From the NCBI RefSeq assembly GCF_044647545.1, contig NZ_CP172818.1: 64,000 nucleotides of DNA; one strand, given 5' to 3'. The stretch is from Escherichia coli (GTDB taxonomy: Bacteria; Pseudomonadota; Gammaproteobacteria; Enterobacterales; Enterobacteriaceae). Below, piece by piece: positions 6,001 through 12,000 of the stretch (its first letter is position 1; each line of letters starts with the position of its first letter). The position numbers are program-made.

Positions 6001-9000
6001 GTACTGATTATTCTTCATAATCAGTACGGGGTTGCTACAACATGTATTACTTTTTCACCACAATTAACGGTTCAATATCACTCTCTTTTTTGATGACCAG
6101 TGATTCATCACCGCGCAAACACGTCCCACCGTAGTTGCCGCCAACGGTGAAGGTACATACCTGAATGTATTTACCGTCCACTTTCGGCAAACACCACAGT
6201 TGCTGATAGATGTTTTTCTGCTCGGCAAATTTACCGCTGGTTTTGTCCAGCACCTCTTCATGATGGCTGACCAGGTCGATATTGCTACCACAGCGACCAG
6301 CGATCGGTTTCACTGCATAACCGGTTTTCACCAGTTCATCATTCACGGAGAAATCGGTATCCAGCAGGTAGCGATGGTGCGGGAACAGCGACCAGAGGAT
6401 CGGCAGAATCGCTTTGTTGCCGGGGATCACCGTCCACAGCGGCTCAAAGACCAGCACTTCCGGGCGCAGCAATACGTCGATAAGACGCACTTCATTTTGC
6501 GGATGACCGGTACGGATCGGCACCGCAGCAAACTCACGGTCGCTAACTTCACGAATCTGATCAAACGCCGTCTCCCACGCCCAGGTTTTCCACACGCAGT
6601 TAACCAGTCGCCCTTCCCCATCAATCAGTTGCCCGGCAGCATCCCAGCCCAGTTCATCCAGCCCACGCAAGATACGCGTTTCAAAGCCCGCCTGGTGCAG
6701 CGCCTGCTCCATAAACTGCGCGTGATAGTTTTCCTCGATATCTTTGTCCTGCATGATATGGACAAACGGACGTGCACGACTGTGTTTCCAGGCACCAGCC
6801 AGTTCGTTAATCAGTCCTTCCGCCGGATTGAAGCCGTTGCCTTTATAGCCCTGCTCCGCCCAACGTTCGAGGATCAAGCCCGCTTCGGTATGACAGGAGG
6901 CAGAATCGGCGTTGTATTCGTAGACTTTCAGGCCACGTTCGTCCATGCAGAAATCCATACGACCGGTGATCATATGGTGACGGCGACGCTGCCAGGAGAG
7001 ACGCAAACGTGGCCAGAGGATTTTCGGAATGTCGAACAGCGCCAGCAGGTTGTCATCTTTTAGCACCTTGTCGGTTGCGTGAAGATACATCAGGTGCAGC
7101 TCGTTGGTGGCTTTAATCAGCTCCTGCTCTGCGCTCTCGGTAATGGTGTAGTAATGATACGGATCCTGATTGATCACCTGACCGTTGGCCTGTACATAGG
7201 CGTTTTGCAGCGGATCTTTTTCATCCAGCCATTTACCGTCAAACTGGCCTTTGTTTTCCAGACGCGCCCCGCTGATTTTCAGCAGTTCGCCTGCAATTTC
7301 CGGCTGTGGCAAGCTGTATTCGGTATCTTCCGTCTGGATCATCCAGCCCAGAATAGTGGTGTCATCAAACGTGTCTTTAAGGGTATAGCCGCCGTTTTCG
7401 ACCACCATCTCCAGCTCGCGCGTCCACTGTTGCCCTTGCGGCAACGGGGAATGAATCACGTTCTGTTCCGCAATACGGACTTTGTTGCCATGCAATTGGG
7501 TAATGATGGCGACATGGCCAGTGTCTTTAAATTCACCGCCTTTATCCCAGATAAGAAGCGCACCCGCGACCGGCGCACGCGGCGAGCCGTTAGGAAATGC
7601 CTGCAATGGCAGGATGTTGTCATTGACCACTTCACGCAGGAAGCGCAGCGAGAAAATCTCCCACGCCATACCCACGTCAGTGAAGACCACACCGTAATTC
7701 AGAAAGAGAAAACGGCGAGCAAATTCAACGCATTGCCATTTGTGGCCCATATATTCGTCGTCGATATAGCTGCGGAATACGGCGTCATCTTCGTATTCCT
7801 GCGGATCGAGAGAACTGTAATCTGAAGAGTAGATTGCTACCCCACCTGGGGCGTAGCCCAATAATGTCCCGAACGGGGCATCCTGGCTGGTCGTTCCTTT
7901 GCTCATCACTTTACCTTTAACAATACAACCTAAGCAGTTGGCGTAATTGTTGTGCTCTGATTACCTGCTCAGCGACATTAACCGGACAGAGGTCAGACTA
8001 ATCATACACCTCATCGCAGCGGCTGGCGCAAAGGGTTAAAAAATTCACATTCTGTACAGCAAGTGACCTGCTACACTGCTTCAACACTACCACTCAGAAG
8101 GCAACTCACTATGACAGACAATACTTATCAGCCCGCGAAAGTCTGGACGTGGGATAAATCCGCTGGCGGCGCGTTCGCCAATATCAATCGCCCGGTTTCT
8201 GGTCCGACGCATGAAAAAACGCTGCCGGTGGGCAAACATCCGCTGCAACTCTATTCGCTGGGAACGCCAAACGGACAGAAAGTAACGATTATGCTTGAGG
8301 AGCTGCTGGCGCTGGGCGTTACTGGTGCAGAGTACGACGCCTGGCTGATTCGTATTGGTGATGGCGATCAATTCTCCAGCGGCTTTGTCGAAGTGAACCC
8401 AAACTCGAAGATCCCGGCGCTGCGCGACCATACCCATAATCCACCGATCCGCGTGTTTGAGTCTGGATCGATTCTGCTTTATCTGGCGGAGAAATTTGGC
8501 TACTTCCTGCCGCAGGATCTGGCAAAACGGACTGAAACGCTGAACTGGCTGTTCTGGTTACAGGGCGCGGCACCGTTCCTCGGCGGTGGTTTTGGTCACT
8601 TTTACCATTACGCGCCGGTGAAAATTGAGTACGCCATCAACCGCTTTACCATGGAAGCCAAGCGCCTGCTCGACGTGCTGGATAAGCAACTGGCGCAGCA
8701 CAAGTTTGTTGCGGGCGATGAGTACACCATTGCGGATATGGCGATCTGGCCGTGGTTTGGCAACGTGGTGTTAGGCGGCGTGTATGATGCCGCAGAGTTT
8801 CTGGATGCGGGCAGTTATAAGCACGTGCAACGCTGGGCGAAAGAAGTGGGCGAACGTCCGGCGGTGAAGCGTGGGCGTATTGTTAACCGCACCAACGGGC
8901 CGCTGAACGAGCAGTTGCATGAGCGCCATGACGCCAGTGATTTTGAGACGAATACGGAAGATAAGCGTCAGGGGTAAGGCAACATTGGCACTTATCCTAT

Positions 9001-12000
9001 TACCATAAACATTTTAACTAACCCCAAAACCACATTTCATTAACTTTTTCCCTCCCCAATTTTTTTTTTTTCCTAAAAAACACCCCCCTTCCCTCCCCCC
9101 CCCCCCCCCCCCCCCCCCCCCCCCCACCCAAAAAAAACCCCCCCCCCCCAATTTTCGTGCAGCGAGTCCCATTTCCCCCGATAAGACCGGTATTTCTTCA
9201 GGCCACAGGAGACTTCAGGCCAAGCTGCTGCATCAGTTTTCGCACCGTTTTGCCACTGAACTTGAGACCTCTTTTCTGAAGTTCACAGTCGATCCGCCGG
9301 TACCCATAACATCCCCGGTGTTCATGGAAGATGGAGGGGATGGGCTGTTTCACATCACAATACTTTTCTTAGCCTTCTGCAGTGACAGCTGATAGTACAG
9401 CGTGCTTCTGGCCAGCCCTGCGAAGCCTTTAACAGGTCAGACTGGCAGTGTCCGCACCTCAGGTTCTGGATGACTTTCGCTTTTTCTCCAGCTCCAGGCG
9501 CTTTTTTCCCAGGAGATCCTCCTGCATGCCTTCCAGATATGCATTTCCTGCGCAAAAATACCCCCCTCCTTCTTCTCTCTTTCCGCCCTCTGTTTCCCCT
9601 CCTTTTCTCGGGTATCAACAAAACGGTCATTCTTTTCTCCCTCCCGCGCCTAAAAAAGCCCTCACCACCAGTTTGTGTCGCCTTTTTCCTGTTTTCCGCC
9701 GTGTGGTGGCCGGGAATGTTAAAGCCGGCCGGCCGCGGGGGAGAGACAGAGAAAATGCGAGAAAACAAAAAAAAACACGCAAAGTCTCTCTAGAAGAAAA
9801 TAGCCGCCCCCGTTCCTGCAATCCAGGAGCAGAAGAGCGAAAAAAAAAAAAAGAATAAAGGGGGGAGGGGGTGGTATAAAAAAGTTAAAATTGTTGTGGT
9901 GAAAAAAGGAGGCCAGACGGGCCGGTGAAAAAATTCTGTGGGGAAGACTATTTTAAATAAAGGTTTTGTAAAAAACACCACCTGATGTGATATGATATTC
10001 ACTACAAGTGTGGGGTGGAGTTTACGCGCCCTAATCATCACGCGCTGGTAATGTCGTAATCCATTTGGCGCAGCGCGTCTAATGTGGCTTTGGCTTCGTC
10101 TTCATCGATGATGCTCATGGCAAATCCGACGTGCACCAGTACCCACTGGCCCAGCAGATCGGCAGGGTTACCTTCGCAAATCAGGGCGATATTCACGTCG
10201 CGCTTGATACCACATACTTCAACCTGCGCAAGCTGGTGAATATCTTCACCGACAGCCAGCACCTGGCCTGGAACGCCAATACACATTGTTAACTCCGGTT
10301 ATTCAACTTCAATACTTTTGACGATCAGCGAATCGCCGGTATCGACACGCAACCGCTCGCCATGACAGAGCGGGCATTGCGCATCGTGCTGATGAATCTC
10401 CACCACCTGGCTGCAATCCCAGCACCAGGCCTGGGCGGGTTTATAGACGATATGTAAATCGCACCCTTGCGCCACCGTTCCGTGGCAGACAATTTCAAAA
10501 CTAAAACGGACGGCGCTCTCCTCAACGCAGGAGAGCGCGCCAATTTCCAGCCACACGGCGGTGACGCGCTTAACATCGTGCTGCTCCGCCTGCCGTTGGA
10601 TAATTTCAACGGCGCTCTGGCAAAGCGACAACTCATGCATTTTCGCCACTCCTGCGGCCAAACAGCAGGGCGCGACGCCCTGCGTGTGGTACATCCGGAT
10701 TGGTGACTGGCAGCGAAAGGATCATTCGTGCGCAGTCATCCGTCAGGCGTTGGCCCTCTTCAATCGACATGCTGTGCGAAAGCGGCGACATCAGCGAACA
10801 GGAGAGATATTGAGAAACACCGTCCAGTTCGCCAACGGTAAAGGTCATAGTGCCATACGGCAGTTGCAGACCAATTTTTTCACTCACTTTGCGCAGCGGC
10901 CAGAGTTGATCCGGGCCGGGGAAGATAACCGCACTCAGCATCCACGGGGTGATCACACACCCCGTCCACTGACCTTCGAACAGCGTAAAGTCAGAAACAT
11001 ACACCGGCATTGAAGGATGCAGAAAAGAGAGATCGTGCATCGAACGCCGGGCAATTTCTTCAAACGCTGCCTGTACTTGCGCCTTCGGGGAGGTCTGGAA
11101 ACCTGCTATCTCTTCAGTCATGAATCGCCTCCCGTGGGATGGCTTCCACGCCTGATTCGCGCAGCGCAGCCAGAACCTGCTCAAGCGCAGGTTCAATCAT
11201 CGCTTCAACCGTCGGCGTTAAGCCGATGTGTGGCTCCAGCGATTCCGGGATCACGCCGACCAGGGTCAGCTTTTTCGGAAACTCACCGGTGAAGCGCAGG
11301 GCCGACAATACGTCGGCCAGGCCAAGCTGATGCGGAGAGATTTTGTTGGTAAACAACGCCGGAACTTCTTCATCCCGCAGGATCATCATCGTTCCCGGCG
11401 CGCTCTTCTTCGACACAATAGCATCCGCAATGATCAGATGATCGCGATTTGCCATGTCGCCAAGCAGCTCCATTCCCGCCGTGCCGCCATCGAGGATCTC
11501 AACATAATCCGGCAGAATGTATCGTTGCTCTAACGCTTCGACAATCCGCACACCGATGGCTTCATCGGTCAGCAAAATATTGCCGACCCCTAAGACTAAA
11601 ATACGCATTACAGAACCTTCACTGAAACCACTTCGTTGCCGTCAGCATCCACTACGTGTACCGCACAGGCCATGCACGGGTCGAAGGAGTGAATGGTACG
11701 CACCACTTCCAGCGGTTTATTCGGATCGGCAACCGGCGTACCCACCAGCGACTGCTCGTAAGGACCGACGTCATCATTGAAGTTACGCGGGCCAGAGTTC
11801 CAGGTTGATGGAACAACTGCCTGGTAGTTACTGATAATACCGTCTTTGATCACCATCCAGTGAGAGAGCATACCGCGCGGCGCTTCAAGGAAACCAACGC
11901 CTTTGAACTCACCTGTAGCCGGAATGTTCGGCTTCACAAAGGTGGTGTGATCGCCTTTGCCGATATTGGTGATCAGTGCACTGTATTGATTTTGCAGGAT

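Follow-up and report, generated by a model that had tools for sequence, protein, structure and literature searches.

What occupies the interval between yghU and hybG in this E. coli chromosome, and can the sequence written there be taken as real DNA? The 64,000-nt stretch that we analyzed (the window) carries at this place about 1 kb of extra sequence, which the initial annotation had described as homopolymer-rich and non-enterobacterial-looking, with nothing but nonsense open reading frames, and had attributed to an assembly artefact, a synthetic insert or model-generated filler rather than to a biological system.

Position and composition of the block

The block is bounded on either side by a clean coding sequence and contains six homopolymers of at least 8 nt:

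8111..8977, + strand: yghU coding sequence, left flank, clean (stop codon 8975-8977)
9060-9071: T12 homopolymer
9095-9125: C31 homopolymer
9130-9137: A8 homopolymer
9138-9149: C12 homopolymer
9767-9775: A9 homopolymer
9840-9852: A13 homopolymer
10038..10286, − strand: hybG coding sequence, right flank, clean

The yghU stretch shows a single difference to ST648-type genomes, at 8359, and the match reaches the stop codon; the first error of the block lies 2 nt 3′ of this stop. The block, initially placed at 8990-10030, extends more exactly from 8979 to 10031. The stop-to-stop distance between yghU and hybG is 122 nt in K-12 and 1,060 nt in the window, agreeing with a short reference spacer, though not with its presumed length of under about 100 bp.

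The long runs described in the initial annotation were confirmed, C31 at the place given for it, as was CT-rich low-complexity sequence (~9560-9650). Six runs of at least 8 nt within 1,053 nt compare with one (longest run 9) in the 61 kb of the window outside four bad blocks, two (longest 9) in the homologous 83 kb of an ST648 genome, four (longest 9) in 68 kb of K-12 and none (longest 7) in the intact insertion sequence (IS) described below. A run of 31 is expected, by our own estimate, ~1e-14 times in a random 64 kb, and the runs thus lie far beyond chance. Two blocks of the window share a maximum run length of exactly 31, which hints at a cap or k-mer effect.

The block as written was present in 0 of 5,426 complete genomes, and an Rfam scan of 8800-10200 yielded no family at E <= 0.1. 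A repeat search of the block gave nothing meaningful, no inverted repeat was found at its ends, and exact look-ups of nine junk ORFs remained without a match.

The block follows an IS1397-family element

IS1397 belongs to the IS3 family and targets palindromic units (PUs) of BIMEs in E. coli. The block 8979-10031 is best explained as a corrupted version, ~450 nt too short, of a real 1,432-bp IS1397-family (IS3) element. An intact IS occupies this exact site in 69 complete E. coli genomes of the ST648 type; their flanking sequence agrees with the window at ~100% identity, and the RefSeq product at the site is 'IS3 family transposase, programmed frameshift'. The element of these relatives is 97.4% identical to a copy annotated as IS1397 family, ends in imperfect terminal inverted repeats (TGAACTG...CAGTTCA) and contains an orfB-frame ORF scoring 299 bits on NF033516 (cut-off 160). 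At locus L001 of a related genome the arrangement reads GCCGGATAAAGC ATTT-IS-ATTT ACGCCGCATCCGGC, placing the IS in the loop of a REP/PU with a 4-bp ATTT duplication, and a second copy, at locus L002, sits in another PU with an AGC duplication. The target preference of IS1397 for REP/PU is documented in earlier work and in the papers cited therein (PMC1525189).

Aligned with the intact element, the block divides into five consecutive segments:

8979..9014: degraded ST648-type spacer and left half of the IS-interrupted PU, collinear with GTCGCAACATTGGCAGGCTTATCGCTATGTAGCCGGATAAAGCATTT of L001
9015..9150, − strand: left part of the IS (IS 1-551, 3′ end of the transposase gene), collapsed to 136 nt and holding T12, C31, A8 and C12
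9151..9540, − strand: best-preserved part of the IS (IS 552-941), 96-97% identity, z = 320 versus shuffles
9541..10020, − strand: right part of the IS (IS 942-1432: orfA and right inverted repeat), progressively degraded
10021..10031: degraded target duplication and right PU half, TTTACG-CGC--CC; true sequence ATTTACGCCGCATCCGGC

Losses in the leftmost segment are nearly all of G. The first 30 nt of 9015-9150 track the end of the IS (T-AACT-AACCCCAAAACC), strict local alignment of the left part being significant only as far as 9044 (z = 20), and the remainder of this part is homopolymer junk. The core at 9151-9540 matches the same-locus copy in FDAARGOS_497 at 376 of 390 nt, versus 364 of 390 for another IS1397 copy. 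It contains a 51-aa ORF (9198-9353, − strand) with 94% identity to the start of the orfB-frame ORF of the IS3-family transposase, which matches NCBIfam transpos_IS3 (NF033516) at E = 5.6e-11 with 42 bits (cut-off 160), so that the block does not encode nonsense only; the remaining block ORFs gave no profile match. Farther right, the identity to the IS falls to 82% in 9541-9798 (z = 88) and to 71% in 9816-10022 (z = 16), the latter being collinear up to 2 nt from the IS end, and 71 of 101 substitutions in the right part copy the neighbouring base. By blastn, 9151-10022 is 80% identical over 883 nt to annotated E. coli IS1397-family copies, and with 97%, 82% and 71% identity by segment this stretch is at odds with a non-enterobacterial appearance. 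Across the window, collinearity holds up under strict local alignment against shuffles only in 2-589, 8979-9044, 9151-10022 and 29086-29387; identities from lenient global alignment are to be read against a random baseline near 0.6.

The underlying element shares with IS1397 its length of 1,432 bp, orfA and orfB with a programmed frameshift, terminal repeats, a 3-4-bp duplication and a position in a PU loop. The window as written differs in having no intact transposase, no recognisable inverted repeats and ~450 nt missing, with ~30% errors outside the 390-nt core. An intact transposase (orfA + orfB, −1 frameshift, DDE catalytic domain) is absent from the block, the region coding for the catalytic domain (IS 1-551) being represented by 136 nt of junk, and the terminal inverted repeats are recognisable only by alignment to an intact copy (left, T-AACT-AACCCC; right, GGGGTGGAG, with TTCA lost). 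The written sequence is therefore neither a functional IS nor a natural IS variant. Contingency tracts, as at phase-variation loci, usually consist of one run of ~8-20 nt that lies within a gene or shortly before it and is found again in related strains. The block resembles them in its long single-base runs, but it has many runs, of up to 31 nt and of different bases, inside a would-be transposase gene and without counterpart in related genomes.

With an intact IS at this site in 69 complete genomes, a complete 1.43-kb IS1397-family element is almost certainly present between yghU and hybG in the isolate, and the extra DNA itself is therefore real and ~450 nt longer than written. Only the rendering of the IS is corrupt; as to the earlier view of the block as an artefact, it is correct for the rendering and incorrect for the existence of additional DNA.

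Damage coincides with the limits of K-12 homology

Homology to K-12 MG1655 ends at 8979, and at 10031-10032 it returns together with perfect ST648 identity. Within the window K-12 homology breaks at 723, 8979/10031, 20902, 29007/30019, 51789/51915 and 55408/55415, the first of these being the IS5/yghQ junction specific to K-12. Each of the four junk blocks starts or stops within a few nt of these ends (up to ~20 nt at the first block), as do four of five small glitch sites. Damage also occurs inside ubiK and yghQ, and single-copy regions are affected, such as the yghQ 3′ end and 29007-30018 with its two hypothetical genes. Block C and 29601-30018 have no detectable similarity to ST648 sequence by strict local alignment; the idea that block C starts out as a noisy assT island copy found no statistical support.

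Of 1342 informative sites in the window, 1336 have the ST648 allele. At 32290-32348, by contrast, 59 of 59 nt are identical to K-12 where ST648 genomes carry a 7.7-kb island, and at 43661-43713 the same holds for 53 of 53 nt at the site of a 7.3-kb island, the switch to K-12 bases lying a few nt from the island borders. Block C, too, retains a K-12 hairpin. The 59-nt and 53-nt stretches might in theory also be conserved empty sites, the window then representing a real relative that lacks the islands; at a lineage divergence of 2.4%, ~2.7 differences are expected in them and none was seen (p ~0.07), and the combination of these alleles with empty island sites was found in 0 of 5,426 complete genomes. 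The chimeric yghQ ORF of the window is on record from a single NCBI contig of 4,499,902 bp, smaller than K-12 and ST648 genomes, so the defect sits in the deposited assembly.

Texture of the errors

Of 114 substitutions, 82 (72%) extend the adjacent base. At block onsets, 71% of G on the + strand is lost versus 21-33% for the other bases, and the decay proceeds in the + direction in all cases. The surrounding sequence is nearly free of errors: 10100-28900 matches ST648-type genomes at full length with a 5-nt loss at 20902 as the sole difference, and stretches of 8,074, 3,454 and 2,271 nt show no difference at all. Because the flanks match genomes that carry the intact IS, there has been no time for natural decay. 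The error spectrum is non-biological.

A toy simulation took the plurality consensus of noisy reads from the true IS that were anchored on the left and not realigned; it gave runs of 18-32 nt, with 80-90% of the substitutions copying a neighbour. It lacks the length collapse, the G-specific loss and the 390-nt island of 96-97% identity that begins abruptly at 9151.

Origin of the corruption

Error texture, breakpoints and chimeric alleles together make a K-12-scaffolded consensus that mangles insertions the best explanation. The corruption is thus very probably computational, with ST648-like reads apparently placed on a K-12 MG1655 scaffold or draft; the kind of pipeline we infer from the pattern it left. 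In such a process, the reads of an ST648-like isolate would be placed onto K-12 MG1655, followed by consensus calling or polishing. In K-12-homologous regions the consensus would be essentially perfect and carry the isolate's alleles, while for DNA absent from K-12 the inserted bases would be rebuilt without proper mutual alignment. Such bases would lose register because they would be anchored at the left breakpoint only, with the result that bases would be dropped, others smoothed into homopolymers and the length collapsed, until perfect sequence sets in again abruptly at the right breakpoint. Insertions of very large size would be missed entirely, with K-12 bases remaining in their place.

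Ordinary reference-based consensus keeps the reference bases at uncovered sites and omits insertions. The record shares with such a reference-guided ('pseudo-genome') consensus the sample alleles at homologous sites, the reference bases where the structure differs, a total length below both the reference and the sample lineage, and defects confined to structural breakpoints. It differs in that insertions of 1.4 to ~1.6 kb are partly written, as noisy and collapsed sequence, a pattern suggestive of long-read polishing or of some iterative extension. The expectation that a technical artefact is likelier than a biological system is borne out in this respect, and of the sources proposed in the initial annotation it is assembly that fits.

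An artefact arising in another way than on a K-12 scaffold, either by de novo assembly of a mixed culture (K-12 and ST648) or by filling short-read gaps with noisy long reads, is a considerably less probable source. IS1397 occurs in up to 40 places per genome, and being multi-copy it makes a classic gap in short-read assemblies; the noisy collinear sequence at ~70-80% identity also resembles raw reads in quality. Gap filling predicts, however, neither the onset and offset near the K-12 homology limits nor the retained K-12 junction bases, and the single-copy regions around 29007-30018 and at the yghQ 3′ end are damaged as well, while the loss of G on the + strand only and the one-directional decay speak against read chemistry. 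A mixed culture would likewise yield K-12 bases at island sites and a messy consensus where structures differ, and this variant cannot be separated from the K-12 scaffold with the present data.

Other technical sources fitted less well. AT-richness or low coverage does not account for the damage, since the G+C content of the damaged regions is 39-49% in the true genome. Tails of Sanger reads would agree with the decay and the weak G, but the onset is tied to the K-12 homology limits and not to primer distance. Early nanopore raw reads under-call homopolymers, which is the opposite of what we observed.

That the block is deliberate synthetic or model-generated filler between real genes is very unlikely. 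Its texture does resemble degenerate output of a sequence model, in that it loops into homopolymers, decays in one direction and is more faithful where the DNA is conserved, and its absence from the complete genomes would agree with such an origin. Yet the block follows the locus-specific IS copy in register to both junctions, as the closer match of the core to the same-locus copy illustrates, which disfavours both the synthetic and the model-filler options raised at the outset. The correct lineage-specific alleles need real isolate data, and the chimeric window ORF in the protein collection derives from an NCBI contig. Free-running generation by a language model could give neither these alleles nor the register held to the right junction.

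A physically real block, that is, a decayed or hypermutated IS1397 relic with expanded homopolymers, is hardly credible: degenerate IS relics do occur in E. coli and the block sits at a genuine IS1397 target, but the flanks show a handful of differences in tens of kb against hundreds of changes in the 1 kb of the block itself, the errors extend their neighbours, are strand-asymmetric and grow one way, the same damage recurs at K-12 breakpoints across the window, including inside ubiK and yghQ, and runs of 31 are absent from homologous real DNA (longest 9). Equally far-fetched is an IS1397 copy hit by localised, strand-biased hypermutation or slippage that deleted G and expanded runs to 31 nt and left the surrounding chromosome unchanged.

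Implications for the deposited genome

Since the corruption most likely stems from ST648-like reads on a K-12 reference, it is a data-quality defect and not biology: in its written form the block is no real feature, and it has no biological significance. The IS1397-family element in the yghU-hybG REP of ST648-type strains is already known from the 69 complete genomes. As deposited, the 4.5-Mb E. coli 'genome' resembles a chimera of K-12 and ST648 in which accessory islands are missing or garbled and genes are truncated, in the window for example yghQ and ubiK. A large protein collection already contains spurious ORFs from it, and analyses of gene content, IS typing and pan-genomes that draw on this record would be misled.

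Block A is a damaged IS1397-family element

The sequence between yghU and hybG (block A, 8979–10031) carries the homopolymers and CT-rich low complexity described in the initial annotation, and these read as described:

9060–9071, T12 homopolymer
9095–9125, C31 homopolymer
9130–9137, A8 homopolymer
9138–9149, C12 homopolymer
~9560–9650, CT-rich low-complexity stretch
9767–9775, A9 homopolymer
9840–9852, A13 homopolymer

Runs of at least 8 nt number six in this ~1 kb, compared with one in 61 kb of window sequence clear of the bad blocks (longest run 9), two in 83 kb of a genome of ST648, the type whose genomes match the flanks of block A, four in 68 kb of K-12 MG1655 and none in the intact element belonging at this site. 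This load is far beyond chance and beyond any real homologous DNA. Homopolymers peak at exactly 31 nt in two independent blocks (C31 here, A31 at 29611–29641), hinting at a run-length cap in the software or at a k = 31 effect during production of the sequence. The yghU and hybG stop codons are 1,060 nt apart in the window and 122 nt apart in K-12.

Relatives were searched among 5,426 complete E. coli genomes, where block A aligns to IS1397-family copies. An annotated IS3-family transposase with a programmed frameshift lies exactly between yghU and hybG in 69 of the 5,426, which we take from their strain names (e.g. FDAARGOS_497, MS6198, ECONIH1) to be ST648-type strains.

Features of the element in FDAARGOS_497
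Length: 1,432 bp
Identity: 97.4% to a copy annotated 'IS3-like element IS1397 family'
Termini: imperfect terminal repeats, TGAACTGAACCCCAAA... and TGAACTGCACCCCAAA...
Flanks: 4-bp ATTT duplication
Target: interrupted loop of a palindromic unit (PU), GCCGGATAAAGC-ATTT-ACGCCGCATCCGGC

REP sequences, the palindromic units of BIMEs, are documented as specific insertion targets of IS1397 (PMC1525189 and the J Bacteriol and NAR papers cited there), so that the biology beneath block A is ordinary and already known. Block A is an IS1397-family element that has been mangled but occupies its natural REP target; the initial reading of an artefact rather than biology was correct in kind, but not in regarding the DNA as foreign or meaningless. 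Nor does it contain only nonsense ORFs, as a 51-aa ORF (9198–9353, − strand) resembles an IS3-family transposase, sharing 94% identity with the beginning of its orfB-frame ORF and matching NCBIfam transpos_IS3 (E = 5.6e-11). In block A as written no intact ORF remains, and neither inverted repeats (repeat search) nor an Rfam match were found.

Progression of the damage along block A

Aligned with the intact element (IS positions), block A comprises the following segments:

From 8979, 2 nt past the yghU stop codon, onset: tracks the true spacer and IS left end with bases dropped
9015–9150, collapse: runaway within ~70 nt into T12, C31, A8 and C12
9151–9540, core: 390 nt corresponding to IS 552–941, 96–97% identity, abruptly regained
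9541–10022, decay: identity of 82% over 9541–9798 and 71% over 9816–10022
10031–10032, return: perfect sequence again

Over the initial 110 nt of true sequence, the bases lost were 17 of 26 G, 1 of 31 A, 3 of 30 T and 2 of 23 C, and IS positions 1–551 are compressed to the 136 nt of the collapse. The core is nearer the same-locus copy (376/390 nt) than another IS1397 copy (364/390 nt), and the decay segment remains in register until no more than 2 nt from the IS end. Substitutions in block A equal a neighbouring window base in 82 of 114 cases. As lenient global alignments overstate similarity, with shuffled sequence scoring ~0.6 under the same scoring, collinearity was assessed by strict local alignment and shuffles, which back it for 2–589, 8979–9044, 9151–10022 and 29086–29387 and not for 9045–9150, 29601–30018 or 51788–51954.

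The surrounding sequence is nearly perfect: 10100–28900 differs from ST648-type genomes solely at 20902, and stretches of 8,074, 3,454 and 2,271 nt show zero differences. In practice this rules out a natural relic, because block A has hundreds of changes in 1 kb and its flanks show no comparable divergence; the strand-asymmetric, directional and homopolymer-making error spectrum also contradicts one. At 5728, where the window has the K-12 base, and at 8359 and 33579, T replaces the C of the ST648 reference within otherwise perfect sequence; these isolated differences may be real isolate SNPs or uncorrected scaffold bases.

Further damaged sites coincide with K-12 breakpoints

The window holds further defects of the same kind, three junk blocks and smaller sites:

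1–722, junk block: noisy collinear copy of the yghQ 3′ end and neighbouring gene as in ST648 genomes
20902, small scar: 5-nt loss
29007–30018, junk block between yqhH and ygiQ: poly-A rich, with A31, then A26, A21 and A19
42418–42434, small scar: GATCTGGTTTTCGATACCCTCCAG rendered as GATTTGGTTTTCAACCCCCA
51788–51954, junk block between ygiC and ygiD: A22 and A13
55408–55419, ubiK 3′ end: ~61 nt collapsed to TTTGAAAAAACC, giving a false C-terminus
58549, small scar: G6 rendered as G5
58587–58590, small scar: spurious GGGG in the sib/ibs region

Block 1–722 is 76% identical to ST648 over 569 aligned columns (z = 101), and clean sequence restarts ~20 nt from the K-12 IS5/yghQ junction point; the damage creates a chimeric 371-aa yghQ ORF (676–1791, − strand), genuine at the N-terminus and junk at the C-terminus. 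At 29007–30018, the place of ~1.5 kb carrying two hypothetical genes in ST648 genomes, collinearity with ST648 DNA holds for the first ~380 nt (88% over 29086–29265) and the remainder has no detectable similarity to it; the text is clean again from 30019, one base ahead of the ygiQ stop codon (30020–30022). Block 51788–51954 shows no significant similarity to the 3.7-kb assT-dsbL-dsbI island of ST648 genomes at its site, and its tail keeps the K-12-specific hairpin GGCACTCGCCATCCGGT.

K-12 homology breaks at 723 (the K-12-specific IS5/yghQ junction), 8979|10031, 20902|20904, 29007|30019, 38912|38918, 51789|51915 and 55408|55415. Each of the four junk blocks begins and ends at these breakpoints, as do the glitches at 20902 and 55408–55419, and the small scars, including those within 42418–42434 and 58549–58590, fall where K-12 and ST648 differ by smaller lengths. 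No damage marks the break at 38912|38918, the site from which K-12 mqsRA is missing; at 55408–55419 K-12 carries the 6.6-kb ygiL-yqiGHI fimbrial operon, which ST648 lacks. Regions present in K-12 and absent from ST648 (mqsRA, the yqi fimbrial operon and a 239-bp REP cluster) were removed with a small scar at most, whereas those present in ST648 and absent from K-12 (the IS, the two hypothetical genes and assT-dsbL-dsbI) are garbled.

Outside the junk, the window has the ST648 allele at 1336 of 1342 sites discriminating ST648 from K-12. Yet 32290–32348 and 43661–43713 are identical to K-12 MG1655 (59/59 and 53/53 bases), and at these two junctions every ST648-type complete genome has an island, of 7.7 kb (TRAP-transporter/dehydrogenase) and 7.3 kb (siderophore-uptake), respectively. 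ST648 alleles extend right to the island borders, with the switch to K-12 text at most a few nt away. ST648 alleles and empty island sites are combined in none of the 5,426 complete genomes (best matches 99.2% and 98.0%).

Origin of the damage

The best-supported explanation, and in our judgement a probable one, is a consensus built from the reads of an ST648-like isolate with the K-12 MG1655 sequence as its base; such a K-12-guided consensus is the likely cause of the damage in block A. DNA homologous to K-12 would be corrected perfectly, reference bases without coverage would be retained and very large insertions missed, while insertions of one to a few kb would be written from read bases anchored at the left breakpoint only, without mutual alignment. 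This last step was imitated in a toy simulation, in which 40 noisy reads of the true sequence were left-justified and the plurality base was called column by column. The output had runs of 18–32 nt from a template with a longest run of 7, 80–90% neighbour-copy substitutions and depletion of the rarer bases, which is the texture observed in block A. The simulation does not give the length collapse, the G-specific loss, the well-preserved 390-nt core or the exact 31-nt longest run in two blocks. The main rival, judged less probable, is de novo assembly of a mixed K-12 and ST648 sample, which the present data do not tell apart from the scaffold.

The chimeric yghQ product occurs verbatim in a large protein collection, sourced from NCBI, on one contig of 4,499,902 bp, placing the defect in a deposited assembly and speaking against a deliberately planted sequence. 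This length is below both K-12 (4,641,652 bp) and the ST648 genomes found (4.96–5.31 Mb), as expected for a scaffold-limited consensus. Block A is of very low biological interest, and its usefulness lies in the caution it gives about the source record.
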